Source: Callorhinchus milii
Taxonomy: Eukaryota
Assembly (NCBI RefSeq): GCF_018977255.1
Contig: NW_024704742.1
Coordinates: 74,278,001 to 74,342,000 of the forward strand
Direction of reading: 5' to 3'
DNA: 64,000 nucleotides
Below are positions 2,125 through 62,606 of this stretch, piece by piece. Positions within the stretch are counted from its first letter, which is position 1, and every line of letters begins with the position of its first letter. Under the pieces are notes generated by a model. That model was not told the DNA's origin. It ran no database searches and saw nothing but the letters and a program-made list of their open reading frames with translations. The position numbers and the translations under genes were made by a program.

Positions 2125-2343
<219 letters not shown>

Positions 2344-28510: not shown

Positions 28511-30364
28511 ACAAATTATTATTATTAGCTGTTCTGTTGAAGAGACTGGTAGTTGGGGTATGATTTCAATAATATTAAAACCTTCAATAAGGTTTATAAT
28601 AATACAGCTTGCATTTCATATAGTGCCTTATCACTACATCAACATATCTCAAAGGGCTTCACAAGATTTTATTATGAAGTGTAGTGACTGTGTATTTGCA
28701 GGCAAACACAGTTTTGTGATTTGGGTCAGACTTGAGTCTTATATGTTTTTGTCGAAGTGCTGAAGATTTGATCTACAAATTCAGATTTGATAGGTTTTGA
28801 AGACTCAGCAGGGAATTGCATTTCTGATTTCACCTCAGTGTCTAATGGCCCAAGGGTTAATGGAGGTTGTATCACCTCAACTCATCACATGCCCTCAGCA
28901 CCGATTGGGCAGAGCTTGACTGCCAGGAGGATAAGTTTCCAGCAAGCCAAGCTGTTTTACTCAGTGAATGCAGTCTTTCTGCTCCAGCCTGAGCCTTTCC
29001 TGTGACCAGTCAGAAAGCCTTTGTTTCAGAAAACATTTCATTTTCCTTCCGTGTCTTCTTGAAGAAGAGAGGTAATGACTTTCAATTCTTTACCATTTAT
29101 CCAGTGGCAATTATTTAAGCATGTTACATTAAAGTAATATTGTAAGCATCTTTTCCATCTAAATACAACCTCTTATTAGAATGACTGTTTAAAGGTTAGA
29201 CTGTCATGTGCTATTATAGTAATAATACGAATTTCTTAAACTGACAGAAAATATGCCTTTTTTGTATTGAGTTTTGATTTATTTGGTTTGCTACTATTGA
29301 GCAGCAAACCGAGACCTGGTGATGTAAAGGAACTTTAGGGACTGTAAGTAACTGGTGGGGAGTGGCTGTTTACTAAGTGATAGCCTCAGGAGAGGGATTT
29401 CTGCTGAAGGTAACTCACACATCTGTTAAAGACCCAAAACAGTTTTGAATTGTTTTGTAAAGAGAAAATATAGTGTTTTTTTCACATCAGGGTTTGCCTT
29501 TTTATCACTAGTACAATCAGTGTTTTCCTTAGAAAACTAAAGAGGACCAGGTTGTCGTTCAGAGGTAAATTCCATCCTTACAAGTAGGCTGTCATCCTGT
29601 TCAAATTCCTCTCAAAAAGCCAAAGATTGATGGCCTCCTCCTGCTGCTGTTATTTCTACGATTCTAGGAAAAGTTTGTACTTGGAATTTGAATTCATAGG
29701 GAGTTTTCCCACAAAACATTGCCAGGCTTTCTCTAATCAGGTTAGGTGTCCTGGGCAGAGCTACACCTATCTGATCTGTCCAGCAGAGGGTAGTTACTCA
29801 CCATCATCTATCTCATGCTGTTGCACCTCAAGTGCCCTCCTTCATCTGTTGTGTTCAGAACAGTAAGCTCCTTGTATTCAGTTGCTAAAAATATCCAGGA
29901 TGAATAAAACAAATCCATGTTCTGAGCGCAAAGATTAGCGGTGGAAACAATCACATCAGTTCAAACCACAATTTATAAAAAGTTCTCATGCAGCCAAGCC
30001 TGACATGTTAAAAATATGTACACAAATCTAGCAAAGCTCTCTGTGCCAGCAAACACCCACAACCTTTTGACACTACCAGCTGAGTGAACACTCATCACAT
30101 CCAGGCTTGACTACACTAACTCCCTGCTTGCCAGACTTCCCAACTCTTCGCTCCACATGCTGCAGGTTATTCAAAACTCTTTCAAGGCCTGTCTCAAGAT
30201 CTTCTTCTTTGACTGTGCCTTCGGTCACCCCACCCCCCACTCCCCTACCCTCCAACCCCTAGCTCGGGTGCAAACCCTTGACGGTCCAGCGCCTTGGAAC
30301 ATCCCCCCGATGTGAAAGACACAATATAAATTTGTTGTTATTGTTGAGCCATGCCTTTTGATAT

Positions 30365-34600: not shown

Positions 34601-35601
34601 TTTTTTGTTTAATTATTGTTTATTATTAAACCTTGTTTAAAAAGAGGTTATCTTATTAACTGAGTATTTTAGCAGGAAAAGAATATATGGTGAAGGTGCA
34701 GCATATATTTTACAGAATTTTCAAATAAAACATTTAATATTACCTTCTGTTTATTTATCTGAGATGCCAAATATGACTTAAATGTGGAACAAGCTAGTTT
34801 TTGCAGTTCCAGAAATGTTTAATTTTGCTTCATGTCCATGGAAAACGGCTTCAAGACATTATTTAAACTCACCATCACCTTAGCATAGCACATTTGCCTC
34901 TGGAGTATAAACTTATAGATTCAAGTCTCATATCAGCACTTGAGCTCACTGTCCAGGCTGTTTTAGTGAAGATTTTGATTTCTGAACATTTGCTGAATTT
35001 ATGCACTGGTATTTATTTAACAGCCACTTCTCTACTGTCAGTCTGACTCAGCTGATGGCATTCTTTGAATCAGAATCAAGCCCATGACGGGACCTTAAGC
35101 TCATAGTTTAGGTTAATACTCCAAAGCAATGCTTGGTGAGTGTTGAATTGTCAGAGGTTTATCTGTGTATAATTGTGAATTGAATAGACGTCAAGTGAAT
35201 ATTCTGATCAATGGGGACTAAAATGTAGTTATTACAACTTGTAGATTTACTAGGATAATACCAGGGCTGGCAGGTTACTGCTATCAGATAGACTGGATAG
35301 GTTATGCCTTTTTCACTAGAGAAGCAAAGTTTAAGGGGAGACCTAATAGAAGTGTTTAAAATTATAAAAGCATTCAATAAGGTAAGAAAGCTTAGGACGA
35401 AGAAGGTCATTCAGCTCAATTGATTGCATGCTTCCATATTACCTACCCTATCACCTTCCAATTCCAGCATTGTATTGTTCTTAAGTGAGTCTTGCACCAT
35501 TCCTGGAAACCCATTCTGATGTTGATTCCCTGTGTATTTCTGCCTGCGCTGCTTGAGATGTGATTCTACCATTGTTTTGCTGCAGGTGACTCCACAGCAA
35601 G

Positions 35602-35655
35602 ATGAGAACCATCATTCTAATTGTGTGCCTGATAGGCACAGCTCTCGCCAGCCCA
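35602..35655 (+). CDS. SPARCL1: SPARC-like 1, first coding exon (signal peptide; exon starts at 35586)
   Basis: tgcag acceptor, 16 nt of 5' UTR, ATG; MRTIILIVCLIGTALA-SP = 16-aa signal peptide plus 2 aa; gtgagt donor, phase 0. Confidence 0.9.
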
Positions 35656-36131
35656 GTGAGTGTCACTTTCTCCAGATAAAAATATAATCTTTACTCAACT
35701 CTAATATTCTGAACTATTTGTGAAATGAATATTCATCAAATGAATATTCTGAGTGATAGGGTCGAAAATGTGGTTTTACTAAAAAAAAAGTACTCCAAGT
35801 GAGACTCCTTCCAGTGATAGGAAATACATCACATTAACCCACAGCAACTACACTCTGAAGGTAGTCTGAGTTGGAAGGTATTGGATTTCTCACAAATTAG
35901 TGTGATTACCATAAAGAGTCCCAAATTGTGATTTAAGAAATTCCTGTGAACTGTTTTAATATAATAATAATAATCCTAGCATTTGATATAGCACTCTATC
36001 ATATCGTTGAGACATCTCAAAGTGCAGCACAGAAATATATCATATATTCAAAGATAATTATTGTAATAACTTCATACATTAAAATCAACTTCCTTGCTGT
36101 CATGTTTTACAATCACTGTTTTCATTTTCAG

Positions 36132-36170
36132 ATCCGCAAAACTCGAGATGTGAGCAGTGAGAGTATAGAG
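36132..36170 (+). CDS. SPARCL1: SPARC-like 1, 39-nt mini-exon (IRKTRDVSSESIE)
   Basis: ttttcattttcag acceptor, gag|gtaatt donor, phase 0/0, ends in S-x-E motifs. Confidence 0.8.
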
Positions 36171-36617
36171 GTAATTCTGTGACTCTGTTATGATGGTTTA
36201 TACAAATGTGGTTTTGTTCAATTAATTTACATTCAACCCAAAAAGCTTGCAGAATGACTCTTTTTTCAGTGTTTAGAGTATGTGTCCACAGTTGATTTCT
36301 CCATCAACATAAGCACCGTTGCTGCATAATGACAGATGTTGTGAAACTCACAGATCAGGAGGAGAGGGATGAGGGATCTGGGCAAGAAACAGGACAACTA
36401 GAAGAGTTACAGCCAGTGTTTCTGTGCTTTCAGAAGCTGCTGGGTCTGGAACCAGGAGAAGGGAATGCGTTCCTGGGGAGAGAGTATAATAATTTGATAT
36501 AGTGCCTTATCACGTCTTAGAGATGTCTCAAAGCCCTTCACAGAATATCTGAAGTGAATTGACCGTATATTTTGTGGGTGAAACACGGCAGCCAATTTCG
36601 CACAGAATTGAACATTT

Positions 36618-37121
36618 ACCCGGGGAGTGGGAGCAAGAACCTGGGGGGAGAGGGAGCAAGAACCTGGGGGGAGAGGGAACAGGTACCTGGAGGGAGAGAG
36701 GGAGTGGGTACTCGAGGGGCAGAGAGGGAGCGGGTACCAGGGGTGGGGGGTGGAGAGGGAGCGGGTACCCAGGGTGGGGGGAGTGGGTACCCGGCGGGGA
36801 GAGGGAGCGTACCTGGGGGGGAGAGAGAGGGAACGGATACCTGGGGGGAGAGGGAGCGGGTACCCGGGGGGGGGGAGAGAGAGGGAGCGGGTACCTGGGG
36901 AGAGAGGGAGCGAGTACTGGTTGGGGAGAGAGAGGGTGTGGGTACCCGGTGAGGGAGGAGAGGGTGGGTATCCGGTGGGAGGAGAGAGGGAACGGGTACC
37001 TGGGGGGTGGGGGAGAGGGAGTGAGTACCTGGAGGGGGAGAGAGTGTGGATACCCGGGGAGGGAGAGGGTGTGGGTACCCTGGGGGTGGGGGAGAGAGTG
37101 TGGGTACCCGGGGGGAGAGAG
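36618..37121. repeat. G-rich minisatellite (~22-28 nt units, core gggtacctgggggagagggag)
   Basis: About 20 imperfect tandem units with strong purine/G strand bias; source of several spurious overlapping ORFs. Confidence 0.9.
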
Positions 37122-37563
37122 AGTAGTCTGATACACAGAGAGAGAGGAGAACCTGCCTGGGAAGCAGATGTTTACACTTTTGAATACTGACATGTCACAG
37201 TCCAAAATCATAGTTTATTGTAGACAGAAGTGAAAGTTAAAGTATGTAACCACCCTTACACAAATAGGGATAAACCGGTTTTCATTATTTTTTCAGGGAG
37301 GAAATTCAGACAGTGATGAGGTAAGGAATTATTCAGTGTATTTGCGTGTGTTAAATTGCATGCAGATTGAATAATGAATACTGATAGTTCGACCGTCCCT
37401 CCCCTCGCCTCGGCTTCATGCTCCGCCACTGTCAAGCTCTCTGAGGCGCTAGCCTGCATGAGGGGCGTGATATAAACGCAAGTTGTTGTTGTTAATAATG
37501 CTGGTTCTTCATCTTGCTGCAGACAGTGAGGCACTTTGTAATGTTCTGTCTGTGTATTTACAG

Positions 37564-38322
37564 ATGAACCCCTTGGTTGATCAGCAGTACTTTCTCTATC
37601 CACGTAGATCCCATTCTCAAATCCCTTCACGGCCTAGATATTACCCAGAGGTTTTCCCTGCTGTACCTCCTGAATATTCCCCTTACCACAGCAAATCTTA
37701 TCAGCCTTTTCATTCCCAATACTTTGCAAGGTATCCTGATTACGCTCAACAGCCTTTCTATTCTGATTACAATGAACACCCAGGGTCTATGGTGTATGAC
37801 AGTTATCCGTACAAGTACCATCTCTTCCCTTTGATAAAGAGGATTCATAATCTGGTAGCATATCGTCTGGGGCACCATTCTACAGGCAACAGATTTGGGG
37901 CCATCCGTGAGAGTGCTCCACAGGTCACACCAAGCAGTATGGAAAACACTAGAACTGAGAAACCCATGGAGAATATCACTCCTAGAATACCAAGCCTGGA
38001 TGGTATCTTCATGTATAACAAACCAAATGAGGTCCCGCATGTTTCTGAGCACAATACTGAGCTTGCCCACTTCACTGGGAACTACCTTGAGCAATCGACA
38101 GATGAAATAACTGATGAAGAAGATCCATATGATGTTCTACGAAACTCTGACTCCATAGGGGTGGAACATTTTCGGTCATCCGGAATTGACATTAGTTATG
38201 AGCAAGTTGGCCACGATATTACCTCTTCAGAATCAGCAGATGAAACCTTGAATAATCAGGAATTGGAAAGTCAAGGAGTGTCTCAGGTAGATTACGTGGA
38301 TGATGACAATGAAACGAATAAG
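37564..38322 (+). CDS. SPARCL1: SPARC-like 1, Tyr/Pro/Gln-rich then acidic exon (253 aa)
   Basis: tttacag acceptor, open phase-0 frame of 759 nt, aag|gtattt donor (alternative cag|gtagat after 38286); lies between other exons of the gene in compatible phase. Inclusion in the mRNA is inferred. Confidence 0.75.
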
Positions 38323-38367
38323 GTATTTTTACTCCTTCAATATACAACGAGTCAAATAAATCCCAAG

Positions 38368-39197
38368 CTACAACAACAACAACAAAATTACATTTGTAAA
38401 GCTCTTTCACGTCGGGAGGACGTCCCAAGGCGCTGGATAGACAGAGTTACGGATCTGAGCTGGGAGTCGGGGGCAGGGTGGGGAAGCAGGGAGATCAAAA
38501 GCATAGTTGAAGAGGAGGATCTTGAGATGGGTCTTGAAGGGAGGGGGCGAGGCGGAGGGACTGAGGGATGGAGTTCCAGAGGGTAGGGGAAGATTGGCGG
38601 AAGACCCGCCCGCCAATAGTGGGGTAAGCGAGATGGGGGACGTGAAGGTGAATTAAGCAGGCTGAAGCCGCTGAGCGGAGGGAGCGAGTAGGATGGTAGG
38701 GTGTTAGGATGTCACAGAGGTAGGGGGAAGCAAGACTGTGGAGGGCTTTGAAGGTGAGGACCAGGATCTTGAACTGTATCCTCCGTGTGATGGGAAGCCA
38801 GTGGAGTTGGGCAAGGATGGGGGTAATAGGGTCACAGAGCCTAGTGTGGAAATTCACAGGCTGCAGAGTTCTGGATGATCTGCACCCTATGGAGGGAGGA
38901 GTTGGGGAGGCCGACAAGCAACGAGTTTGCGTAGCCGAACCTCGATGTAATGAAAGCATGTTTGAGGGTTTTGGTGGCCTGCGGTGTGAGACAGTGGCGG
39001 AGCCGGGCAATGTTGTGGAGGGGGGGAAGGCAGAGTGGGTCATGGCGCAGATGTGGGGTAGAAAGGATAGTTGAGGGTCAAACAAGACCCCAAGGTTCCG
39101 GACTGACTTAGTAAGGTGAAGTGTGCAACCATGGATGGTGATGCTGTCAGTGCTTGAGTGAGGGGGCGCTGACGGGAGCCAATCGGGAGAGCCAAAG
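38368..39197 (-). mobile_element. L2 LINE 3' fragment with (TTG)n tail
   Basis: VRNLGVLFDPQLSF...LHWLPITRRIQFKILVLTFKALH...IGGRVFRQSSPTLWNSIP. Confidence 0.9.
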
Positions 39198-39462
39198 TAA
39201 TAATAACATGCCAATTAGCCATAGAGTAATGCACCACAGTATATGTTAAAATAATTAGCAAATATTGATGGTGCCGGGGAAGGGAGGGTTTGGCTTAATG
39301 AAGGAGATGTGCCTGGCAAAGTGAGGCAAGACCTCAGTAAAGTGAACAGAAGTTGATCAATGACCAGTCTGTCTGGCTCATCAATGAGAGGGAAGTTTGA
39401 AATCCCTGATGATTTTGAAAGTGATTGGAAACCATGTGCGGTTACCATTGTTGTTTGTATCC

Positions 39463-39731
39463 AATTCCAGGCACAGGGCGAAACCTTGGGCAAGTTTCCT
39501 TACTCCACACGCCTAATAATAATCCCTCCAAAACTAAAAACAATAATTAAATTGGTCATTTTCAATCTACGACTGTTTGTGGGACATTGCTGTGCGCAAT
39601 TGGCTGCCGCGTTCGCCCACAAATATACAGTCAATTCACTTTACAGTGTGTTCTGTGAAGCGCTTTGGGACGTCCTCCCGACATGAAAAGCGCTATATCA
39701 AATGCAAGGATTATTATTATTATTATTATTA
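39463..39731 (+). mobile_element. tRNA-derived SINE (5'-truncated)
   Basis: Near-identical to the copy at 7680-7949. Confidence 0.85.
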
Positions 39732-39997
39732 ATTGGAAGGTTGTGTTTTCACACCTTTGGCTCTGGCTCACTGGGCTCAGGTGTAACAGTGCACCAGGTG
39801 TCAGTTTCCCACTCACTATTTCTGCTTCAGGCATTGTGTGTGAGAACTGGTTGAATTAAATTGTGGACTAGAGCTAAATGATGCTGTGGTTTTCAGCACC
39901 AGCAAAGAGCATCATGATTCTGGATGTATTCTGTGCTAATCTCACAAACTGTATATGGTTTCAGCATTGTGATGGGATGGTTTCTCTCTGTCTGTAG

Positions 39998-41230
39998 GCA
40001 CAGGACATCAGGACTGAGTCAGTACAAATGACTGACAGCGACAGCAGAGGTGATTCCAGTGAGAGCAACACTTCTGAATCCACTGGGGATGGAGATGAAA
40101 ACAGAGTGGAACAGAAAACTGATCTCAGAGTGGAGTCCACTGAGGATAACACAGCCGAGGACACTGAAGACAGTGAGGATGAAGATAGCAAAGCTGACCT
40201 GAGAAACAATGTCATTGATGACGACAAAACTGATTCCAATGAAGACTATGATAATGACGATGGCAAAGCTCACTTGGGATCGGAGTCCACTGAGGATAAC
40301 TCTGATGAATCCACTGAGGATGATGATAATAGCAAAGCTGACTTGATGGTTGATTCCAATGAGGATAACTCAGCTGAGTCCAATGAGGACAGTGATGAAG
40401 ATAGCGAAGCTGACCTGAGAATGCAATCCATTGAGGACAGCACAGCTGAGTCTACCAAGGACAGTGATGAAGATAGCGAAGCTGACCTGAGAGGGCAATC
40501 CATTGAGGATAGCATAGCTGAGTCCAATGATGACAGTGATGAAGATAGCGAAGCTGACCTGAAAGTGCAGTCCATTGAGGACCTCACAGCTGAGTCCAAT
40601 GATGACAGTGATGAAGATAGTGAAGCTAAACTGAGAGTGCAATCCACTGAGGACAGCACAGCTGAGTCCACTGAAGACAGTAATGAAGATAGCGAAGCTG
40701 ACCTGAGAGTGCAGTCCATTGAGGACCTCACAGCTGAATCCAATGATGGCAGTGATGAAGATAGCGAAGCAGACCTGAGAGTGCAATCCCCTGAGGACCT
40801 CACAGCTGAGTCCAATGATGACAGTAATGAAGATATCGAAGCTGATCTGAGAGTGCATTCCCCTGAGGACCTCACAGCTGAGTCAATGATGACAGTGATG
40901 AAGATAGCAAAGCTAACCTGAGAGTGCAGTCCATTGAGGACCTCACAGCTGAGTCCAATGATGGCAGTGATGAAGATAGCGAAGCTGATCTGAGAGTGCA
41001 ATCCCCTGAGGACCTCACAGCTGAGTTCAATGATGACAGTGATGAAGATAGCGAAGCTGACCAGAGAGCGAGGTTGATTGAAGACAACACATCTGAGTCC
41101 AGTGATGACAGTAATAACAACAGTGCTAAACAACCTGAACTGAATGCTGATTCCAGTGCTTTGAAGTATGATGAGTCTAATGAAGGTGACAGCAATGAGT
41201 CAAATTCTGCACCAAGAAGCCTACAGGAAA
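39998..41230 (+). CDS. SPARCL1: SPARC-like 1, large acidic Asp/Glu/Ser exon with RGD and 72-nt tandem repeat; 1-nt frameshift near 40884 in this sequence
   Basis: tctgtag acceptor (phase 0), a|gtaagt donor (phase 1, matching the next exon); ORFs 40028-40921 and 40924-41349 carry the same repeat in two frames. Confidence 0.85.
40112..41120 (+). repeat. Coding tandem repeat, 72 nt / 24 aa, ~14 units (SEADLRVQSIEDLTAESNDDSDED)
   Basis: agcgaagctgacctg recurs at 40403, 40475, 40547 etc. Confidence 0.92.
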
Positions 41231-41392: not shown

Positions 41393-41514
41393 ACCCATGT
41401 AATAACCATCCTTGCAAACGTGGAAAGGTCTGTGAGCTGGACAATGAAGGGAAGCCCATGTGTGTTTGCCAGGACACAAGCACCTGTCCTGCTAGTACCA
41501 CTGACTCTCAGCAC
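41393..41514 (+). CDS. SPARCL1: SPARC-like 1, follistatin-N (EGF-like) exon
   Basis: [41 protein letters not shown]; ag/gt boundaries, 122 nt. Confidence 0.95.
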
Positions 41515-42667
41515 GTGAGTGTTTGTTATCACAATAGCAAAGTCTAGTGAAACAAAAGAATTAAACAAACATTCACTGCTTTATTTCAGATCATGGTTTC
41601 ATCACTGGCACAATTTTCGACTCTGTTACCAACATAATATGCTGGGTGCCAGGGTAAATACTAATTCAAAACACACATCATCTTAACAAAAATATGAATA
41701 TTAATCATGAAAAGCCAATAAACTACATGCAGAGAGTTCTGTGTGTTCTCTTCCAGACTGCTCTGGTGCCAAACAATACCATCTTTTAAGGAAACCACTC
41801 ATTGCAACCCATTCACCTCTTTCCTGAAGGGGACCAGGAAACGTCCCATGGTGTGACGGTTGTTTCTCTGAGCACCAGTCGGTACCATGACTGTTTACTG
41901 ATGTTCTCGGTGACTTTGGGGTCCTCAAACTTTAGGATTCTCCCAAAATCCCTTGGTAGTTGAGCCAATCTTATGAACTAATCTTATGCTGTGATTCATG
42001 AACTGAATCAATACCAACTGGTTTGGACTACTGCTTGTAAGCAGAATTTGGAAAAGGAAAGTTAATAAAATAAATATGATTTCATGGGTTTATCTGATAA
42101 AATACAAAGAACCGATTCTTTTATATTCTTATTCGGGATCTTGTTAGCGCTGAATTGGTTCCAAGGTGACATGCCTGGCAACAGATTGTTGGAATCAAGC
42201 CAGCCCTCTGTGGTGTCCCAGTAGACCAGGTCCTAAGTCAGGCACTTTCGCAGTATTCCAGGGCACTGCTGATGACAGCACAGCCCAGCCTGGCTCATCT
42301 ACAGGACCCGGAGAGGCAGACCAGTCACTGGAGGCAGAGAGTCATCCCACTCAGCTCCTGTTAATCCTGCAAGCCAAAGCCCTAACAGGTCAGGTGTTCC
42401 TCACTGGACAAGGAGTGGGAAAGCTTGCCGAACACCAATATCAATGGCAAGCTATGTGGTTTTAGCTGGTTAGACTCCAGCAATACCCCAACGCATGCTC
42501 TGGGGTCCCCAAGCCAACCCGCAAGAAATATTCAATCAAGAAAATGTATTTTGTTTTGCCAACCATACAGGTTGGCCACCACTGTTCTAGGGATTATGTT
42601 AGTTTGTCCATAGTTGCTAAACTTCAACATTTTTCCTTGTATTATTAAACAATTTGTTTTTTTCCAG

Positions 42668-42788
42668 GTGTGTGGCACAAATAACCGAACCTATGAAAGC
42701 TCTTGCCAATTCTTTGCCTCCAAGTGCATTCTTGAAGGAACAAAGAAGGGACACGGACTCCACCTGGACTACTTTGGGCCCTGCAAAG
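42668..42788 (+). CDS. SPARCL1: SPARC-like 1, Kazal exon
   Basis: [40 protein letters not shown]; 121 nt, ag/gt. Confidence 0.97.
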
Positions 42789-43189
42789 GTAAGTTTGTAA
42801 TGCAAGAAGTGTCTAAGGTCCAAATTATTAAGCACATGGAGTTTGTAACGATTCCATAACTATCCAGGTTTCAATATTTTCATTTATCATAGATTTAAAT
42901 TAAGATAAGACTGTTACAATAATCTACTATGCAAATAATGTACATAATACAACAGGAGTGGATGTATCTTATTGGTACCTGTAGGGACTTTGACTAATCT
43001 GTGCTTTGATATGTCATTCTAAGAACAAATTGCTTCGCCAATACAGTACCATAGTATTAGCAGCAATACGATTTTCTCACCTGAAATATATTGCATTGAA
43101 TATGGTGCAAGGAAAACAATTAGCTACTTCTTTAAACAGACAGTCTAATTTGCAATGATACAAAATATGCTTCATGTATTAGCTTGGTT

Positions 43190-43540
43190 AGTTTGGTTCA
43201 GTTGGTAGCTCTCTTGAAACTCTGTGGGTTCAGCCCTCAGCAGGATCTAGGTTGAGATAATATTGATGAAGTGCTGCATTGTAAAAGGCACTATCCTTTT
43301 GGTGAGATATTAAACAAAGGTCCTGTATGTGTTGAGGTGGACATTAAAGAGCAGGGAGTTCTTTGAGTATCCTGTCCCAATATTCCTCCCTCATCCAACA
43401 TTCACAAAACTATGAATTGATTATTTTTTGTCATTGTCATTTCAATTATGTTATGGGTACAGATTAGCTGCCAGGTTTGCCTATATTTCAACCGTCAAAA
43501 TAGCTCACTGCATAAAATGTTATGTCAAATGCAAGAATTA
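43190..43540 (+). mobile_element. Deu-domain SINE, decayed
   Basis: ggttcagttggtagctctc head; gagatattaaacaaaggtcctgt..aggtggacattaaaga core. Confidence 0.55.
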
Positions 43541-43652
43541 AAAAAAATCTGATTTTTGAAGAATTCGGTGGCCTTATTAATTAAATTACATCTATACAAA
43601 ATTTACATTGAAAAAATGAGGCTTTAACATGGTTTATTTTGGTTCTTTCTAG

Positions 43653-43789
43653 ACACAGCTCCATGCCAGGATAATGAATTGCTTCAGTTCCCTTTGCGGT
43701 TACGTAATTGGCTGAAGAATGTCCTAATGCAAATGTACGAGCGCGATCTTCAGATCCCTGGAATCCTTACTGAAAAACAGAGAAACAGA
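43653..43789 (+). CDS. SPARCL1: SPARC-like 1, EC domain exon (alpha-A helix)
   Basis: [46 protein letters not shown]; 137 nt, ag/gt. Confidence 0.95.
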
Positions 43790-44594
43790 GTGAGTTGTGT
43801 TGGTTTTGTTCTTCTTTAGTACTTGACTAAATACCAATTGGGAGTTTCATTTTAAACTCAGTTAGATCATCAATCATTCAGGTTGGTCAGATCGTCAGAT
43901 GAAAGAAAAACTTATCATTAACCCTGCTTTAAAAATGTACCTCAAAAATCCCAGTTTTAGGGTATTATCTCCAATTATGCACCACGGTGATCTCTTCTAT
44001 TAAGATCTTTGTCTTTTGGGAATAAGATTAAAGCTACCTAAATTTACCAAGACATTAGACTTTCTGAGAGAGAAAATTCTCATCTCAACTGTTTGAACCA
44101 AGTTTCAGATCTCTTCAATGCATTAATGTTCTCATATCACACTATAACCAGTGTTTCTTGTCCCTATTTATTGATTTCCTTATTACTTCACTCATTCACA
44201 TCTGCATCCTTCCTCAGAAGATGAGATCACACAGGTTGGAAGGCAGGGGTCTCTGAAATCAATGCTCTTCCAGAATTCAACAAGCAATAACCATGAAACA
44301 GTGAAACAAGACTGTCAATTCACCCCACTTGGATCATTGCAAAAGTGAGGAGTAATAGCCACTGGAAGATATTGAGGAAGTGCCTTAAATACATTGATTG
44401 CACATCATAGGCTACATGAGGATTGATTTGAAGGATCCATAAAAGGATTTACAAATTGTGAATCCTGCAGGTGACCCAGATTAGAACTTGCCCCGACCCG
44501 GTTCGGGACAAATATTAACTCAGTGTTTTCAGCAATAGAAGGCGAACATTGTGTCTGAGCTACTACTAACTTTAAAAAAAATCAATATTCCATA

Positions 44595-44725
44595 ATCTTA
44601 AATGTTTTTAATGCATTTATCCAGTAACCCTTTGAATGATTTTATTGATCCAGCCTCAGTGGACACTTGTAATAATGAATTCAACACACTGACAACCCTC
44701 TGAATGAAGAAACTTTGCCCATCTT
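44595..44725 (-). mobile_element. Short CR1 3' fragment just upstream of an exon acceptor
   Basis: Minus strand FFIQRVVSVLNSL...EAGSIKSFKGLLDK. Confidence 0.7.
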
Positions 44726-44768
44726 TTTCTGTTAACAGTACAATTATGGCACAATCCTTTGTTTGTAG

Positions 44769-44914
44769 GTTAAGAAAATTTATGACAGTGAGAAGAATCT
44801 TCATGCTGGTGACCACTTATTGGATCTGCCTTACAGTGATTTCAAGAATTATTATTCATTCATCTATCCAGTTCACTGGCAATTCAGACAGCTGGACCAG
44901 CATCCAACTGATGG
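44769..44914 (+). CDS. SPARCL1: SPARC-like 1, EC domain exon (into EF-hand 1)
   Basis: [49 protein letters not shown]; 146 nt, ag/gt. Confidence 0.95.
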
Positions 44915-45755
44915 GTAAGAAGGAACAAGCTTTATATTGACTTTCTTTTTCTGCTATTCCATTTTTAATTGGAAAACATAGGAAATTAAACTCAAGAGTA
45001 GGTCATTTGGTTCATCAAACCAGTTCTGCTATAAACCATTCTATGTACAACAAACAATCCATGACTTTCTGGGACAGTGATAGATTCTTATTCCTTTATA
45101 GGAAGAGATTTTCTTGGTCATAATCAGTTTTTTTTTTAATCCCAATTTTAAACCCATGTCTGCTTTAACTGATGGACTCACCAGGGGAAAAGTCAATTTG
45201 AGATTGGGTGGAGTTGCATCTGGGCAGGGTGGTAAAGGCGAGCATGCTAGACACATTTACGAAATGGCTTGAGCTTGATGGTCTAATGAGAAGATGGTAG
45301 GTTGGGGATTCATCAAAGACGAGTCTAATTAAACTGAAGGGCCATGTCTCACTTGTATATTACAAACTGAATTCAGTCCAATTACAATTTGGATGGCTAT
45401 TTTCCTTTGGTCAGTGTTGTTCATTAGTATTATGACTGCAACAATTTGCATTTCTATAGACCTCTGCACGTGGGGTAATGTTTTGGAGTACTTCATGATG
45501 TCTGACAACATCAGATGAGTAGTGAAGTCTCATCGTGATTGATAAATCCATCTATTTTACAACGCACTTATATATACAATATGCACACAAGATAGCATCT
45601 CAAAGCATTTTACAAGGCTAGTGTTGGTCTCTGAGCGGGGGTGGGGGATTTGAAAAAAANGTGCATATTTTTCAATGTGTACCAGGCACATGAATGACCA
45701 AAAATATTTGTTGTACTGTGCCATAGAACTCACAATGCTTTCATTCTCATTCCAG

Positions 45756-45904
45756 TTATCTCAGCCATTCTGAGCTGGCTCCCCTTCGTGCTCCATTAGT
45801 TCCTATAGAGCACTGCACCTCCCGATTTTTCACGCAGTGCAACACTGATGGTGACAGATTCCTCTCTTTGAGAGAATGGGCTCACTGCTTTGACATCAGT
45901 GAAG
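45756..45904 (+). CDS. SPARCL1: SPARC-like 1, EF-hand exon
   Basis: YLSHSELAPLRAPLVPIEHCTSRFFTQCNTDGDRFLSLREWAHCFDISE; 149 nt, ag/gt. Confidence 0.96.
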
Positions 45905-46324
45905 GTGAGAAGAGTCATACAGTGAGATTATTTCATCCTCATGAACTGTTAACATTTAATATTTTTATTCATGTTCAAAACTTGCACTTCATATAGAGTA
46001 CATTTATTTCAGTAATTGAAATCTTTGATAATCCATTTAATTCATTGTGTTTTGTAGTATTGTTCGGAATCTAGATTGACCTCCCTCTTTTTACAATTAC
46101 AGCAAAAAGATTAATAAAGGACGGGGTGTGGTCTCATTCACAATTGAATTGGACAACGCCAATGTTGTATAAATATATTACTTTAATCTTCCCAGTGGAA
46201 ATGAGGGATGTGATGCTGTCAGTAGGTGGAATATTAGTGTTGCAGACAGAGTTGAAGAGATAAGGCAAAAAGCTATAATGGACAAAGTAATGCGACTGAA
46301 ACTGCCAAGTCACCAGTCCTTGGG

Positions 46325-47130
46325 GATTAAGAGATTGTCATAGTCAAGCCTGGAGGTGATGAAAGCATGGTTAAGGATCTCAGTGGCCGGAAGGGAGAGG
46401 AGGAGCTGGGCAATTATGCGAAGGTGGGGGAAAGATGAATGGGTCAGGGCACGGATATGTGGTTTTCAAAGCAGTTGAGAATTGACCGAAGTTCCCCACT
46501 AGCTCTGTGAGGTGCAGTGTGCATCCATGTAGATTGATGCTGTCGGAGCCTGAAGTGAGCAGGCGCTAACGGGAGCCAATCAGGAGAGCCTCGGTCTTGT
46601 CAACATTCAACTGGAGAAAGTTAGCTCTCAACTAGAACTTGATGTCTGACGGACAAACGGTAAGAACAGCAGTGGTCTTGGAGTCGAGTAGCAGGCAGAG
46701 ATAGAGTTGGGTGTCATCTACTTCCATGTTAACCTCATGCCTGCGGATGACATTGCCAAGTGGGAGGGTGCAGATATTAAAGAGAGGACCGAGTATAGAG
46801 TCCTAAGAATACAAGTGGTGGTGCAAGGGCAGGAGGAGAAGCTGTTGGCAGATACGAAGTGGAGACTTTGGGATTAGGTAAGAATGAAATCAGCAAAAGA
46901 CAGAAACATGAAGATGGAGCTGAGAGGAGAATCGGTGGAGAAGGATAGAATGGTTAACAGTGTCGAAGGCAGCAGAGAGATCAAGAAGAATGAGAGAGAG
47001 ATCCCTGGTCACAGGAAGGAGGGATGTCATTAGTGACTTTGATCAGTTTCGATACTGTGGCAGCATAGAAGCCAGATTGGACGAGTTTGCTCATAGGTTA
47101 GAGATAGGAATTTGTTAGGCAACAGGGATG
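46325..47130 (-). mobile_element. L2 LINE RT fragment, decayed
   Basis: Minus strand LILLDLSAAFDTVNHSILLHRF..., LGPLLF, LQLNVDKTEALLIG remnants. Confidence 0.8.
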
Positions 47131-47252
47131 GGTCGAGAGACTACCCACTAATTTCAAGTCGCATAGCAAATTAAACAGTAGTTTTAAAAAAAACATTTTA
47201 CTAAATTGATAAGTATTTGTATTGAAGAAATTCCTGTTCCTTTCTCTTACAG

Positions 47253-47281
47253 AAGACATTAATCCTGATCTTACCTTCTGA
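47253..47281 (+). CDS. SPARCL1: SPARC-like 1, last coding exon (EDINPDLTF*)
   Basis: tttctcttacag acceptor, phase 1; SPARCL1-type C-terminus; TGA followed by TGA TAA; AATAAA at 47529, 47731 and 47818. Confidence 0.92.
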
Positions 47282-49816
47282 TGATAAATTGGGACTCCAC
47301 AGACCATCCTCACTAAATTTCAATTCCTTGTACCATTTTTGCTGTGTAACCTACAATTGATGTACATTTAATATCATATCCCTTCATCAATGGCATTAGA
47401 GTAACGCTGAGTTATTTTTTTTCCCTGAAGAGATTCTTTTTGTTTTTGACATACATTTTCTAATATATAGAACATTTATCACAGACATTAAACAGTTTGT
47501 AATACATCTTTAATGATTGCCCCAGGCTAATAAACAAGGTAAACTATTCTTGTGACATCTAGAAAAATCTAATTAATTACTACAACATAAACGTACTGTT
47601 AAAAGGTCAGGGCACATCTGTTAAGTGCAGTAGCACTTCTTATTTGGCCAAGAAACATGCAATAGTAAGGGAGCTTGGCATTTCCCTCAGAAATGATGAA
47701 GATTTACTGATCTCTAGTCTTTCTATGTATAATAAAGGATTTAAAAACAATTATTTCAACAGCAAATCAGTCTCGGTTTATTTGTGTATCTAATTGTTAA
47801 ATGTATTTTTTTGTTTCAATAAACTATTTTAAAAAAGAAAGCTTTGTCGTAACTGATTAACTGTTTGGCCACAAACAAGTCATTGCACTTTACAGTTTAT
47901 CTTGCGAAGTGTTAAGACATTCTCCTGGCATTTAAAGCGCTCTACCAAATATAAGGATTATTTTTTTAAATTGAAAAGATTGGCTCAACTGCAATGGACA
48001 ATGATGATTAAACACCAGCAATAATTATCACACCACTCACAACATTTTACGCCCTACATCCTGCTGACAGCTACTTCCCTCCCTACATCCCAGTAGTTTG
48101 TTCTATATAAAAAAGGGCAGTGTGGGTTGCAGATACGAATATCACTGCTGTCATGATTAATACCAGTGAAATCAAAAAGATGGTCTATGGGTAATATTAT
48201 CTCTTAGGTCTGCATTTCAAATGTGCTATATTGTTGCTCTAAGAGAAAAATGAGTTTCAGCAGGTTGCACCAAGTTAACAGGAGTACAAAGTATAAAACC
48301 TGCCAAAATTAGTTGCAAACAAAATCTCAGACGAGTCCAAAAGGAAAACTGGTCTGGAAGATGAAAAATTGTGAAAACATAAACAAACAGAAAGTGGGAC
48401 ACTCAAAATCTTTTTGCACATTTTTGTGTTGACACAAGGTGGAAACTTGTTTATGCTTCCACATTATAAACAAAGGCATTCCATTTTATAATGTAGTGTG
48501 GACAGGCCAATCGCATTACTTATCCTGATTACCAAAACATACGCCACTCCTAAAATCCATGAAAATCAAAATGGGAGTGATTAATGATTACTGGGATAGT
48601 CATATACGATGCAAACAAGAACAAGTCCAGCTCAGATATAAAACAGCAAAGAGAGGATAAAAATCTTAACAGTTGAGAACTAAAGAAATATCAAACCATA
48701 AATATTTTGCTGTCCCTTTTGAGATTGTTACCCCTCCCCAATCCTCCGCCCACCCTCTAGAAATTCACAGGCCCTGTAAAATTTACACCTCTTCATCAGG
48801 TTTCCCTCAACCTTCTCTGTTTCAGTACAAATTGCTGCTCAGGTCAAGACACTTACCCTATGAGCAGGAATTTTGCCCTATTTGCCCCTATTTACAAATC
48901 CTAAGATCCCATTAACTTTATTTACAGCTTTGTCCTCCTGTCTTCTCACCTTCAAAGATTTATTTGCATTGACCATCAGGTGTCTCTGCTCATCTATTCC
49001 TTTTACAATTTTAATCATTTAGTACATCCAACTTATTCTTCCACCCAAATGTTACCTCACACTTTTGTGCATTAAATTTCATCTCCATCTTTCGACACAA
49101 TCTGCTAGTCCATCTATGTCTTCCTGAAGTTGCTTAGTTTTCTTTAGTAGCATGAATTCAGAATAATTTAAAAAAAGATTAAATATAACTACTACATTAA
49201 GTTCAATGATTCAGGAATGAGAATTGATGTGAACTCGAGGAGGACAAATACAAAGTGTTTGTGTAGCTCCTCATCACATTGACACTTTTCAAAGTATTTC
49301 AAAGGTAATTACTGTCAAGTGAAGTCACTGCTTGTGTAGGTAAGTTTGGCAGTCACAGAAATAGTCGCACACGGCAACATCCCATAAACAAGATAAATGA
49401 CCAATTAATTTGGATTACTGTAGGCCAAGACATCAGGAGAAACCCCTTTCTCTTTTCGAATAGTATATTACCAAGAACTAAACACTGGTTGCCAATAATA
49501 AAGAGGTTGCAAGTGATGCAGGAAGCAAATACATCTAACCCAACAAATCTAGCCAGGGTACAAAGTAAACAGCATTTCTGACATTTTTTAAACTTATAAA
49601 ATGTTAGCACAAAGTGCGCACAGTTTAATATTTACTTTTCTTTTGCCCATACAGTTTAGTGTAATCAGATCATTTCAAGGAGCAGCTGTTGACCTCGTAT
49701 AACACTGAAGGCCTCATTAGTATTCATTTTAATGGTATCTAAGATATTTTTTAGTTGACAGCGTGGACTTGGTAAATCTGCAGAGGATGTGCTCTGCCCC
49801 TCACAAAACAACAAGG

Positions 49817-50220
49817 TGTCAGCTTGGCTCAGTTGGGAGTGCTGTTGCCTCCGAGTCAGAAGGTTGGGGATTCAATCCTCAATTTGGGACCTTGAACTCA
49901 ACAGTGTAAGCTAAACTCCAATACTGTGATAGAGCATTGTTGGAGGTGCCGTCACTTGGAAGAGTTTTTAAGCTTTGTCCTGTCTACCTATTTAGGTGGA
50001 CATTAAAGATATCACAGCACTATTCAAAAAGATGATTTATCCTAGTGTCCAAGACAACAATTCCCCAGAAAAAAATGGTCATTCACTTCATGGTTGTTTG
50101 TAGGACATTATTGTGCAAAAATTGACTGCCACTTTCCCCTACAAATATATTCACTCAGTCAATCCTGTGAAGCTTTGAGACATTTCAGTAAGGCGTATAA
50201 AATGCAAGGATTATTATTAA
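49817..50220 (+). mobile_element. Deu-domain SINE, near full length
   Basis: ggctcagttgggagtgctgttgcctccgagtcagaaggttggggattcaatcc head, aggtggacattaaagat core, TTA tail. Confidence 0.65.
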
Positions 50221-50689
50221 CAAACAACAAAAAACATTTCAATGAAATAATGTAGCATGAGCATCTCATAAAAGACACAGAGTTATGCAGGAGCAAGATG
50301 TTAGGAATGAGGTGAGGTAAATGTAAACAGGATGAATAAATATTACAGACAGCATCATAGAATTTGCAGCATCTGTTCACCAAAACACAGCCACCTAACA
50401 GAGGACAAAACAGGATTATCAGCAAAAATAGAATAGTCATAAAAACATTGAAGAAACTGGCAACCCATCTAAACCAAAAGTTTTTACTATTTTGTGAAAT
50501 TTACCAAACAGTGAAGTAACTGTTCAGTTTTTATTTGCTTATGGCTTCTGGGTGTAGAGAACACATATTTGCTTAAAAAGCCGAGGTCAAATCAAAATGT
50601 GTGCAAATGAAATACTTTTTTGCTTGGATACAGACTACAGAAATACATATTCTTTTGAACTGTCAACAGTGTCTAGGCCTTCAAACATC

Positions 50690-51337
50690 CATTCTTCCTC
50701 ATCCACGGTCTCACACCACAGGCCGCCAAAACTGTCATACATGCACACACTGAGGCTTGACTATGCAAGCTCCTTGCTTGTCAGCCTCTCCAACTCCTGC
50801 CTCCACAGGCTGCAGATCATCCAGAACTCTGCAGCCCATGTCCTCTCCCACACCAGGGTCCGTGACCCTATCACCCCCATCCTTGCCCAACTCCACTGGC
50901 TTCCCATCACACAGAGGATACAGTTGAAGATCCTGGTTCTCACCTTCAAAGCCCTCCATGGTCTTGCTCCCCCCTACCTCTCTGACCGCCTAACCTCCTA
51001 ACATCCTGCCCACTCCCTCCGCTCAGCGAGCTCCGGCCTGCTTCACGTCCCCCACCTCACCCGCCCCACCATTGGCGAGCCGGCCTTCTGCCACTCTGCC
51101 CCCACCCTCTGGAACTCCACACCGCAGTCCCTCTACCCCCTCTCTTGCCTCCTTCAAGATCCATCTAAAGACCCTCCTCTTTGACCATGCTTTTGATCTC
51201 TGATTCCCCGCCCTGCCCTCCACCCTACCCAAACCTGACCCCCAGCTCGGGTCCGAAACTCTGTCTGTCCAGCGCCTTGGGAAGTCCTCCCGACATGAAA
51301 GGCGCTATAGAAATGTAATTTTGTTTTTGTTGTTGTT
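50690..51337 (+). mobile_element. L2 LINE 3' end with (TTG)n tail
   Basis: RLDYASSLLVSL...LQIIQNSAAHVL...LHWLPITQRIQLKILVLTFKALHGLAPPYL. Confidence 0.9.
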
Positions 51338-51654
51338 CGTACACTGGAGATCAACCACTATACCATTTTACAAAGCAATGCTTTGCACAGGAGCTTCTTC
51401 CAACAACCGTTGCTTTTATGTTGTGCCTTTTATGTCGGGCGGTGTCCCAAGGTGCTTTCCTTTCATTTCTATTCAGAAACGGTTTTGTCATTTATGATTC
51501 TCCCACTATCCGTATTCTTTAATTGTGTGAACAGGAAGAACATTTGGTAGTATTGATTACATGAGGACACAACACACTGATTGATAATAATAATGAACAT
51601 TACTGCTCAATCTAGCAAGGTAGAAATAATGGCACCAGAGATTTGTGCTCATCA

Positions 51655-52385
51655 CAGCAACTAGCATTGACATAGCACCCTCCATGCAGGGAGTGTCTCA
51701 GAGCACTTAACAGTGATGGAGCAGGACTCCGAGCCGGGGGGGGAGAGGGAGGTGACAGTAAACAAGTCAAAAAGGTTTTCAGGCGGGGCTTGACAAGGGG
51801 AAGGGGGAAAGGCAGAGGGACTGTGTTCCAAAGGGAGAGTGTTCCAAAGTTTTGGGACGTAGTGGCTGAAAGCGCGACCTCCAATGGTGGGTCAGAGGAT
51901 GCGAGGGTCAAGCAGGAGGCTGGTGCCAATCGAGCGGAGGCACCGGGTGATGGATTGGGGAGTGAGGAGGTCAGAGAAGTAGGGAGGTGCCAGAGAGTGA
52001 ATGGATTTGAACAGAGTGTGAGGATCTTCAAGTCGATCCGTTCGGTGATGGGGAACCAGTGAAGCCTGGCCAGAACTGGTGAGATGTGGGTACGGAGTTT
52101 GGTCCGGGTCAGTATGCGGGCGGCAGAGCTTTGAATGAGTTGGATTGTTTGAATAGTGGAGCTGGGGAGACTGGCGAGTAGAGCGTTTGAGTAATCCAGG
52201 CGGGAGGTGACAAACACATGAAGAAGGGTTTCGGCTGCTTTGGGGTAAAGTAGTTGGAGGTGGTAGAAGCCGGTCCTAGTCAGGGACCAGATGTGGGGGA
52301 AGAAGGTCAGCTGGGGGTCGAATCGGACGCCTAGTTTGCGCACTGATTCAGTGAGGCTGAGGAGAGCCCAGGGAGGTTGAGGAAT
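51655..52385 (-). mobile_element. L2 LINE 3' fragment
   Basis: HVFVTSRLDYSNALLASLPSSTIQTIQLIQSSAARILTRTK...; same subfamily as 8345-9000. Confidence 0.9.
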
Positions 52386-52947
52386 CACAATGTACCAAAT
52401 ATTGAAGCAGATATTATTCTAATAGGGAGTTAAAAAGAGATGGTTTACTTTGGCCCATCTTTCTTGCGACCTAAATGTGCCCAAATGTTTTGGTTTCTTG
52501 CAATTTTTGATTTAACTGTGGAAAAAAGATCAGCACATTTGATGAGATACAGAGAATGCTTTCACTGTGCACAACGAAAACATTGTTGGTTATAGCCAAT
52601 CTTCTCCCAACAACTAATGCTGTATTAGGCAAGCCGTAGCAAAGTTCAAGCTAACAATGCCTACTCACATCATGATGTTTCACTTTCCTATTTAATGTAC
52701 TTTAACCCGATTTTTCTGCCTCTGTGCATTTAAAATTATGTGTTTAATCTACTTCTGTGTGATTATTTGTACAATTAAAACACTATTCATGTAGAAAATT
52801 AATGATATACTTATGGATATCGTACTAACTCATAACTCATTTTCAGCTAAAAATAGTATTGGTTATAGTCCCTCAGCCCTGAAAGACCACATGTTATTGA
52901 TGGAATGGCCATGAATGTAGGCTGCAGCATGTGGCATCATAATATAA

Positions 52948-53244
52948 ATAATAATAATCCTTGCATTTAACATAGCGCTTTGCACCTCTTCGAGACGTCT
53001 CAAAGCTTCACAGAATATACTGTAAAGTGAATTGACTGTATATTTGTGGCAAAACGCGGCAGACAATTGCACACAGCAGTGTCCCACAAACAGTCGTAGA
53101 TTGAAGTGACCAATTTATTATTGTTTTTTTTCTTGAGGGATTGTGTGGAATAAGGAAATTTGTCCAACATTTTGACCCGCCAGGAATCAAACCCAGGTCA
53201 CTCGCTTCTGAGACAAGTGCTCTAACTACTGAGCTACAGGACTC
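52948..53244 (-). mobile_element. tRNA-derived SINE
   Basis: Tail to head (ctgagctacaggactc) of the same family. Confidence 0.85.
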
Positions 53245-56149: not shown

Positions 56150-56295
56150 ATAATAATAATCTTTACATTTGATATAGCACCTTATCACATCATTGAGACG
56201 TTGCCAAGCGCTTCACAGAATATTGTAAAGTGAATTGACTGTACCTTTTGTGGGCGAAACGCAGCAGCCAATTGCGCACAGCAGTGAACCACAAA
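56150..56295 (-). mobile_element. SINE 3' half
   Basis: (TAA)n ...atttgatatagcacc...gcagccaattgcgcacagcagtg. Confidence 0.75.
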
Positions 56296-59200: not shown

Positions 59201-59344
59201 TCAAATTCTCCTTTCAAAATAAACATTCCCAGTTATCGTAATGTGCTTGTAGATTATGCATTTTGCAATAAAAGTAGCATTGATCCTTTTTCCACAACAC
59301 GATCACTATTTATCTATTCTGCTTGTGGCGCAACTGCATTACAA

Positions 59345-59422
59345 TTAGTTGAGGTCATCCTCATCATCATCTTCTTCATCGTCATCTTGGTCAACGGAAT
59401 CCAAGTCATCTTCGTCTTCAAC
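59345..59422 (-). CDS. USO1: General vesicular transport factor p115, last exon (acidic tail)
   Basis: ttatacag acceptor; VEDEDDLDSVDQDDDEEDDDEDDLN then TAA; p115 acidic C-terminus. Candidate minus-strand AATAAA at 58220-58225 and 58156-58161. Confidence 0.9.
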   Translation of the reverse strand, partial: VEDEDDLDSVDQDDDEEDDDEDDLN

Positions 59423-60518
59423 CTGTATAAAGGAAAGATATTCTTTTGTCACTGTATTTAAAATGCATGAGGCTGACGTAACTTGCACTTATTTATAGCT
59501 GTACATGCAATGGGAAGATCACCAGTGCCATGTACGAGTAATGGTACAATTTCACAACTTTTAGGTACAGACACAATGTTTTACCTGGTTGAAGTGTGCA
59601 TTTAGGAGTCTCTAATGTCTAGCTTCAGACAAACTGCAATTTTGTTCTCCAGCTACAGACAATCAAGATATTTCTTTCTGCTCTCCACCCAACTGAGCGA
59701 TTGCAAATTACAGATCTAACAATTTAAAATTATGTGAGTTCTCAGCAAATTCAGCAGAGAGGCTTTAGCACTAAAAATTTCTGTACACATTAGACAGCCA
59801 GCAATATAATCGAACACTGTCAGTAGCAAAGTTGGTAACAGCTTTGTAACATATTGTTCTAAATACAAGGTGAGATCTTCTTCCTCTAAATTCAGTTCAA
59901 AACTGCTACCATTCTCATACTCAGACTAACAAAACCGAGCTGCAAGATAGCAACAAGATCTCATTGTATATATACTTAAAAGTTGTGAAATTACACACGG
60001 GGTGAGTTACTCCCCACACTGTACAGGTCAATCATGGCTCAGCAATTTCTCAACCCTCAATCATGTTCGGAACTGGATTTTTTTTTTTTAGACAAGTACC
60101 TCAAAAGTAGGGATTAATGAAAGGGGACCAGAATTAGAGAGAAAAAACGAAGAGTGAGAAAAATACAAAGTCATCATACTTTATAGAAAATTCTTTGAGA
60201 CGTTCTCCCAATGGGAAATGTGCTACACCAAACGTGAGGATTATTATTAGTTCAGTCACTACATATTTCAGCTATTCATTGAAGAGTGAATAGCACCCCA
60301 CTAATTAACGTACATCACTGAAATCATAAATAACAAACTAATGTATTTTGAAAGAAGCTCACATTAAGTGTGTCTCATAAGATAGCATATAGTTTATGAG
60401 ATGATATGGAATCAGCCTGAACTTGAATTATGTTCATGTTTCAGTCAATTAACCCAACATATAGCCTGTACTGGGCTCATTAGTGTGAATGTGGTGCAGT
60501 CTGACAAAAAATTTGGGT

Positions 60519-60817
60519 GGAGTCCTGTAGCTCAGTGGTTAGAGCACTTGCCTCGCAAGCGAGAGACCTGGGTTTGATTCCCAGCAGGGCGAAACCTTGG
60601 GCAAGCTTCCTTACGCCACACACCTGATAATAATCCCTCAAGAAAAAAACCCAATAATAAATTGGTCACTTCAGTCCATGACTGTTTGTGGGACACTGCT
60701 GTGCGCAATTGGCTGCTGCCTTTCACTCACAAATACACAGTCAATTCATTTTACAATATATTCTGTGAAGCGCTTTGAGGAGTCCAGAAGACAAATGCAA
60801 GTATTATTATTATTATT
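60519..60817 (+). mobile_element. tRNA-derived SINE, full-length example
   Basis: gagtcctgtagctcagtggttagagcacttgcctcgcaagcgagagacctgggtttgattcccagc: A box, anticodon-like stem-loop (CGC), B box; TTA tail. Confidence 0.88.
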
Positions 60818-60991
60818 AAATTTAGCTTTCATTATAAGACAGATCAATCTGCATCCAAACAGTCAAGTATAAGTATAAGAATTCATAGACAATGTCTGAC
60901 CAACTGGCTGGAAATGTTAACCTCTTCTTTTCAGATGCGGATGGACCTGCTATAGATATGCAGATTTTCCTCTTTTTGGCTGGTATCATAC

Positions 60992-62552: not shown

Positions 62553-62606
62553 TAATGCAGGCATAAAGCTGCAGAGATCACTTGATGAAATGGCGAATTT
62601 TAAAAC

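Follow-up and report, generated by a model that had tools for sequence, protein, structure and literature searches.

SCPP-type 5′ exons and a tyrosine-rich exon in the sparc-L gene of the elephant shark Callorhinchus milii

RESULTS

Gene content of the window

The DNA analyzed here, referred to as the window, comprises 64,000 nt of Callorhinchus milii contig NW_024704742.1 (positions 74,278,001 to 74,342,000, forward strand) and carries on its plus strand the gene whose exons are listed in Table 1. Four of these exons are identical to residues 1 to 18, 19 to 31, 32 to 39, and 40 to 292 of the RefSeq protein XP_007890095.1 (SPARC-like 1 isoform X1), and the rest of this protein beyond residue 292 was matched in the window by tblastn. 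Pfam analysis of XP_007890095.1 returned PF09289, PF07648, PF00050, and PF10591 above the cut-off, i.e., the follistatin-N/Kazal and SPARC calcium-binding domains. For residues 666 to 898 of the C. milii UniRef model A0A4W3J2H3, the best non-self matches were the shark Sparc-L proteins of Heptranchias (69% identity) and Heterodontus (66% identity), in a similarity ranking, not a tree, that covered proteins of 493 to 1572 aa. Downstream of the gene, the 3′ exons encoding the C terminus of uso1 are located at 60986-62740 on the minus strand (PF04871, E 1e-10). The identity to XP_007890095.1, the Pfam domains, and the shark Sparc-L nearest matches together identify the gene as the single chimaera sparc-L. 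Its product displays the features of a chondrichthyan Sparc-L, namely a signal peptide, a long acidic N terminus rich in S-x-E motifs, the follistatin/Kazal domain, and the SPARC calcium-binding domain. Since the follistatin/Kazal and EF-hand domains are retained, the gene is Sparc-L and not an SCPP. An initial annotation made from the letters of the window had proposed an SCPP-type exon 2/exon 3 pair in a gene that keeps its SPARC domains, and both the exons and the domains were confirmed.

The exon pair is already annotated and published, and thus represents the known state of chondrichthyan sparc-L: the Sparc-L-Cm protein printed in supplement S1 of PMC9122587 (Leurs et al. 2022) matches the window exons, and, by its authors' account, Fig. 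1 of that paper depicts the C. milii exons together with their phases and S-x-E sites. The pair had been described as invisible, which applies to the list of open reading frames and to A0A4W3J2H3, but not to RefSeq isoform X1. The UniRef/X2 model A0A4W3J2H3 begins at 37564 and lacks the signal peptide and exons 2 to 4; isoform X1 was found in the same cluster. An annotation fix is indicated here, to restore the signal peptide to this public model and to take account of a third mini-exon.

A region upstream of the gene, at 2140-3620 on the plus strand, we take from its translation to be the 3′ exons of a pkd2-like gene; with Pfam, the stretch 2140-3600 gave only a weak, unrelated match. Open reading frame fragments elsewhere in the window are presumably reverse-transcriptase-like. 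Interspersed repeats of very high copy number, reaching a contig depth of about 10^6, occupy 38350-39740 and many introns. The flanks at 3700-28900 and 47300-60900 contain no scpp-like copy of the sparc-L 5′ exons, in agreement with published work in which C. milii lacks scpp.

Table 1. Exons of the sparc-L gene in the window
Feature	Position	Strand	Remarks
Exon 1 (likely non-coding)	28930..29071	+	5′ end approximate; donor at 29072; from tblastn and by-eye likeness to catshark
Exon 2	35586..35655	+	16-nt UTR, ATG at 35602, predicted 16-aa signal peptide plus 2 residues, phase-0 donor
Exon 3	36132..36170	+	39-nt phase-0 mini-exon, R-K-T-R followed by tandem S-x-E
Exon 4	37297..37320	+	24-nt phase-0 mini-exon ending in S-D-E; residues 32 to 39 of XP_007890095.1
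Exon 5	37564..38322	+	759 nt; phase 0 at both ends; begins Tyr/Pro/Gln-rich, followed by a probable homolog of the conserved internal region of shark Sparc-L/Scpp
Exon 6	39998..41230	+	Acidic, 72-nt tandem repeats
Six follistatin-N/Kazal and SPARC calcium-binding exons	41393..47281	+	tblastn with XP_007890095.1 (2 of the 6 exons are not among the matches listed) and Pfam; boundaries read off the sequence: 41393-41514, 42668-42788, 43653-43789, 44769-44914, 45756-45904, 47253 to stop at 47281

Exon structure of the 5′ region

Exons 2 and 3 comprise 18 and 13 codons, respectively, and both are in phase 0, flanked by AG and GT splice sites with an acceptor that is rich in pyrimidines. The reading of exon 2 as a short untranslated leader, a signal peptide of 16 residues, and 2 further residues agrees with the sequence, the splice sites, the hydropathy of residues 1 to 16 (7-residue mean up to 4.0), and their A-x-A end; the signal peptide was judged by these rules. 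The 39-nt exon reads exactly as had been proposed, with basic residues followed by two tandem S-x-E motifs up to the exon end, and corresponds to residues 19 to 31 of isoform X1. A mechanical scan of both window strands yielded 45 open mini-exon candidates of 21 to 60 nt, two of which end in S-x-E (those at 36132 and 37297); both belong to sparc-L. None with such an end was obtained in 20 block-shuffled plus-strand copies, a lenient null, as shuffling destroys the splice signals too. The second of the two, exon 4, is a third phase-0 mini-exon and part of RefSeq isoform X1, so that the direct junction 36170-37564 expected in the initial annotation is not the annotated path but one that skips these 24 nt. 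No counterpart of exon 4 was found in nine fetched shark and ray proteins, and it is likely a lineage-specific (chimaera) extra S-x-E module. Altogether, 37 S-x-E sites precede the follistatin domain. The intron between the two S-x-E mini-exons contains, at 36622-37152 on the plus strand, a G/A-rich degenerate minisatellite with a period of about 23 to 26, which yields the long spurious Pro-rich and Gly-rich open reading frames found there.

The first four coding introns are in phase 0, and the intron after exon 6 is in phase 1 once a missing base is counted. Specifically, a base that RefSeq isoform X1 requires is missing from the window near 40885 (40883-40886), inside the 72-nt acidic repeat, which shifts the frame to a stop at 40921; this is likely an assembly error. 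Exon 6 consists of 36% D/E and 17% S, and its acidic repeat is described in PMC9122587.

The numbering of the exons depends on a candidate upstream exon. The translation of the upstream region contained in a Scyliorhinus torazame protein model found its best window tblastn match at 28930..29071 (E 0.009), with a score equalled in 7 of 300 shuffles. By eye, the donor context of this segment is the same as in the upstream region of catshark sparc-L given in supplement S6 of PMC9122587, and the letters upstream are similar. Searches with short DNA motifs for this exon remained mostly blank. Judged from these sequence likenesses, 28930-29071 is likely the non-coding exon 1, in which case the numbering as exon 2 and exon 3 is right. 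The segment has a GATAA element near its start. Reading by hand, an ATG at 28968 would open an upstream open reading frame of 35 codons that ends with a stop at 35587-35589, in frame with and just ahead of the main ATG; it requires a transcription start upstream of ATG 28968. The public S. torazame model itself appears to translate upstream and exon 1 sequence and to lack most of coding exon 3, and is likely a mis-annotation.

Spliced contigs from four runs of three studies, whose kind we guess to be RNA, were compared with the stretch 37160-40110. In all four runs, 38322 and 39998 were joined across a GT..AG intron. In two runs (X1 and X3), the contig opening exon 5 extends 56 and 58 letters further upstream, and the depth in the bin of 37297-37320 equals the contig depth multiplied by 24/99 (6.02 to 1.46 and 5.6 to 1.36, respectively). 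A third run (X5) showed a depth of 2.27 over this bin, whereas the fourth (X2), whose contig begins at the edge of exon 5, showed none. Inferred from the depth arithmetic and the extra upstream letters, inclusion of the 24-nt exon fits the contig depths in three runs, which speak against the junction 36170-37564. Neither the joint 37320-37564 nor one skipping exon 5 is among the 15 of 84 joints listed. The junctions 35655-36132 and 36170-37297 lie outside the compared stretch and are those of RefSeq isoform X1.

Conservation of the N-terminal motif

An orthologous mini-exon, proposed as a check in the initial annotation, is present in catshark: according to supplement S6 of PMC9122587, it occurs in both sparc-L and scpp, in phase 0, and its acceptor and donor letters are identical to those of the window. 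Exon 2 likewise has an orthologous catshark exon with matching boundaries. All nine fetched shark and ray Sparc-L/Scpp proteins contain R-K-x-R-D and a final S-x-E. R-K-T-R fits the minimal convertase pattern R-x-x-R, the residue at P2 being non-basic (T, A, or V) in each of these proteins and in the window. In the rows of supplement S7 of PMC9122587 that include the N terminus (two partial rows left out), R-x-x-R is kept in 11 of 12 and the segment ends in S-x-E in 12 of 12, as counted by eye; one skate Scpp lacks the first Arg. Of the tandem S-x-E noted in the window, the single final S-x-E is common to sharks, but the tandem pair is not. In bony-vertebrate SPARCL1, R-x-x-R was found within residues 17 to 34 in none and S-x-E in one of 91 rows, these being the rows out of 114 that start with a signal peptide, nearly all from teleosts. 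The available text of PMC7814152, PMC8042750, PMC13188829, and PMC5713400 contains nothing on the mini-exon at 36132-36170.

The tyrosine-rich exon 5

In the comparison given in PMC9122587, Sparc-L is scored as lacking a Tyr-rich domain, and the elephant shark as lacking a conserved internal region. The first 90 residues encoded by exon 5 contain 16 Tyr, the composition there being 24% P+Q and 18% Y. Counted in the same way, 12 to 17 Tyr per 90 aa are present in four shark Sparc-L proteins, 16 to 20 in three shark Scpp proteins, 6 in the Scpp of Pristis, and at most 5 in bony SPARCL1 (114 rows). A PDYxxPxx array was rejected for exon 5, which has only two imperfect motifs of this kind.

The last 140 residues of exon 5 are colinear with coding exon 3 of sharks in a weak alignment, with scores of 55 to 115 for eight shark and ray proteins. 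For four of the eight proteins, these scores exceeded all 1000 local shuffles, whereas for the remaining four they were equalled by 4 to 35 of 1000; among the 114 SPARCL1 controls, scores went up to 60, and two Scpp scores fall inside this range. With a profile of the eight shark and ray regions, exon 5 came out on top among 117 targets, with E values of 2e-4 (C-terminal part) and 0.0025 (whole), and pairwise BLASTP gave an E value of 2e-4. Exon 5 is also phase 0/0, corresponds in its position within the orthologous gene, and shares the uncommon donor start of catshark coding exon 3. The S. torazame model was left out of these comparisons because it lacks most of the region. A database-wide search with exon 5 returned the C. 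milii protein only (1 of 618 candidates; 1 match in 1.84 billion representatives). Hence, the likeness lies below database-wide significance, and the case for homology is built on the pairwise and profile comparisons and on position. Taken alone, the first 113 residues, i.e., the Tyr-rich part, did not rise above local shuffles (10 to 129 of 1000 as high) and are a compositional and positional match only. Taken as a whole, this sequence evidence makes it quite probable that exon 5 is homologous to coding exon 3 of shark Sparc-L and Scpp.

In the cleaned tree alignment of PMC9122587, the chimaera row is empty over the exon 5 region (masked), and the C. milii coding sequence in the Ks alignment of supplement S11 skips exon 5. 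An annotated isoform skips exon 37564-38322. Our own trees of exon 5 with the eight shark and ray proteins have a very long window branch (2.6 to 3.9) and leave the order of scpp and the chimaera split undecided; likewise, the identity of exon 5 outside the conversion tract does not differ between Sparc-L (17 to 27%) and Scpp (19 to 25%).

Comparison with Sparc-L, SCPP, and SPARCL1 genes

Over residues 1 to 292, RefSeq isoform X1 and Sparc-L-Cm are identical to window exons 2 to 5. The C. milii records differ in the single base near 40885 missing from the window, the exons missing from the UniRef/X2 model, and the exon 5 skipped in the S11 sequence. The Sparc-L and Scpp proteins sampled from elasmobranchs (catshark, Heptranchias, Heterodontus, Cetorhinus, Chiloscyllium, and Pristis) share with the window a signal-peptide exon plus 2 residues and a mini-exon of 12 to 13 residues in the same splice context, followed by a Tyr-rich stretch (12 to 20 Tyr per 90 aa in seven of the eight proteins, the exception being Pristis with 6) and the colinear internal region. 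The window differs from them in its extra 24-nt S-x-E exon, its tandem S-x-E, its 24-aa acidic repeat, the lack of a PDYxxPxx array, and the lack of an scpp duplicate within the window.

SCPP genes are defined by an exon 2 encoding the signal peptide plus 2 residues, an exon 3 with S-x-E, and 5′ introns in phase 0 (PMC3039539), and the window gene shares these features with bony-vertebrate SCPPs of both the acidic SIBLING type and the P/Q-rich type. The second exon, counted from the likely exon 1, ends 2 residues into the predicted mature protein, and the short second coding exon 36132-36170 carries S-x-E; the composition is acidic in exon 6 and P+Q-rich at the start of exon 5. In contrast to these SCPPs, the window gene keeps the follistatin/Kazal and EF-hand domains, and a phase-1 intron precedes them, so that not all coding introns are in phase 0. 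The latter criterion is a soft one, since the fourth intron of shark scpp is also in phase 1 (PMC9122587). According to the same paper, the mature regions are not alignable with those of bony SCPPs, and shark scpp resembles sparc-L in its 5′ exon structure, in which the introns are in phase 0 and the signal peptide is conserved and S-x-E sites are present. An S-x-E exon 3, previously taken as diagnostic of SCPP genes, is therefore a feature common to SCPPs and their sparc-L parent. The history of the SCPP family is treated in PMC6117938, PMC3964593, and PMC8656109.

Bony SPARCL1 (hevin) resembles the window gene in its C-terminal domains (61 to 65% identical in the rows listed), its signal peptide, and its acidic N terminus, and differs from it in the absence of the N-terminal R-x-x-R and near absence of early S-x-E in the 91 rows and in the low Tyr count given above. 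Kawasaki et al. in 2017 reportedly argued that SPARCL1L1 has an exon structure like that of acidic SCPPs.

DISCUSSION

In our judgment, it is highly probable that the exons at 35586-35655 and 36132-36170 are the first two coding exons of the single elephant-shark sparc-L and provide a predicted signal peptide and, after it, a short tag, first basic and then acidic, for which phosphorylation by FAM20C is predicted and trimming by a furin-type enzyme is likely. From its sequence, the exon pair is thus predicted to work like the N terminus of an SCPP.

Processing could proceed as follows. Signal peptidase would cut after Ala16, and a furin-type convertase of the Golgi would cut after Arg23, releasing a propeptide of 7 residues. 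The new N terminus would then begin with three S-x-E sites (Ser26, Ser29, and Ser37), which FAM20C would phosphorylate along with other S-x-E sites. By analogy with the expression in catshark, the product may be a calcium- and apatite-binding acidic matrix protein secreted by ameloblast-like cells; catshark sparc-L and fam20c are co-expressed in ameloblasts (PMC9122587). With all 5′ introns in phase 0, duplication, skipping, or detachment of the small exons would preserve the reading frame, and the derivation of SCPP genes from sparc-L via such phase-0 5′ exons is a published route (PMC9122587).

Within this scheme, the cut after Arg23 is the step for which we would claim a somewhat better than even chance. 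Alternatively, the basic cluster may not be a convertase site at all and may stay on the mature protein, as an N-terminal binding element or an element of the signal-peptidase context, so that only S-x-E matters; we consider this conceivable but distinctly less probable. A furin motif is weaker without a basic residue at P2, and P2 is non-basic throughout the nine proteins and the window; moreover, the skate Scpp mentioned above dispenses with the first Arg of the cluster, and the literature searched yielded no paper on furin cleavage of SPARC-L and nothing on specificity. Against this, the arginines at P4 and P1 are fixed in all nine proteins and the window, with a variable P2 and Asp next, which is the pattern expected if R-x-x-R is under selection, and the R-x-x-R site of FGF23 sets a precedent in being cut by furin (PMC12133119).

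It is very improbable that the two exons begin a hidden separate scpp gene, or that they open a short transcript of SCPP type terminating ahead of the SPARC domains. Sharks do possess an scpp built from sparc-L 5′ exons (PMC9122587), the UniRef model starts at 37564 without these exons, and in-frame intronic stops after exons 5 and 6 (open reading frames ending at 38586 and 41349) would make intronic termination possible in principle. However, RefSeq isoform X1 links both exons to the SPARC domains, exon 5 is spliced to exon 6 in every run, and neither a second copy of the 5′ exons nor an Scpp-like match was found elsewhere in the 64-kb window by tblastn or blastn. A chance combination of splice-like sites in an intron can practically be dismissed: an open frame of 39 nt between AG and GT is not rare, as the 45 candidates show, but the RefSeq annotation, the catshark ortholog with the same flanks, and the motif in all nine proteins refute it.

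With the sparc-L identity of the exon pair being established knowledge, the fresh point of this analysis is that exon 5 is tyrosine-rich and likely the shark exon that was reported missing in this species. Neither this homology nor the conserved convertase motif is stated in the literature searched, which did not include Kawasaki's main papers. Because the chimaera row is empty over the exon 5 region and the Ks coding sequence skips exon 5, the tree evidence for an scpp younger than the chimaera split carries less weight than it seems to. The paralogue clock estimate of about 350 My in PMC9122587 is independent of this masking.

A more far-reaching reading, to which we give about an even chance, is that chimaera sparc-L still contains the whole SCPP module, i.e., the signal exon, the convertase/S-x-E mini-exons, the Tyr/Pro/Gln-rich exon with its conserved internal region, and the acidic exon, within a SPARC-domain protein. 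The tyrosine-rich domain of shark Scpp would then be inherited from a sparc-L more than 400 million years old and not be convergent as published. Both SCPP classes of bony fishes could have sprung from a single precursor in which P/Q/Y-rich exons stood alongside acidic ones, the removal of the 7-residue propeptide possibly being common to all. If this reading is true, the tree argument that shark scpp postdates the separation of chimaeras is no longer well founded, as the alignments behind it masked or skipped the homologous exon of the chimaera.

The sparc-L gene of cartilaginous fishes thus has the SCPP-type 5′ exons from which, as published, the phosphoprotein genes of tooth, bone, and milk arose, and its conserved R-x-x-R would add a simple processing step that we did not find described in the papers searched. 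The tyrosine-rich module is likely ancestral in cartilaginous fishes. If exon 5 is indeed homologous to the shark exon, the published comparison table has to be corrected in two rows, and a region common to all three genes becomes available for dating the shark scpp duplication anew, a result of interest to those who study how enamel and enameloid originated.
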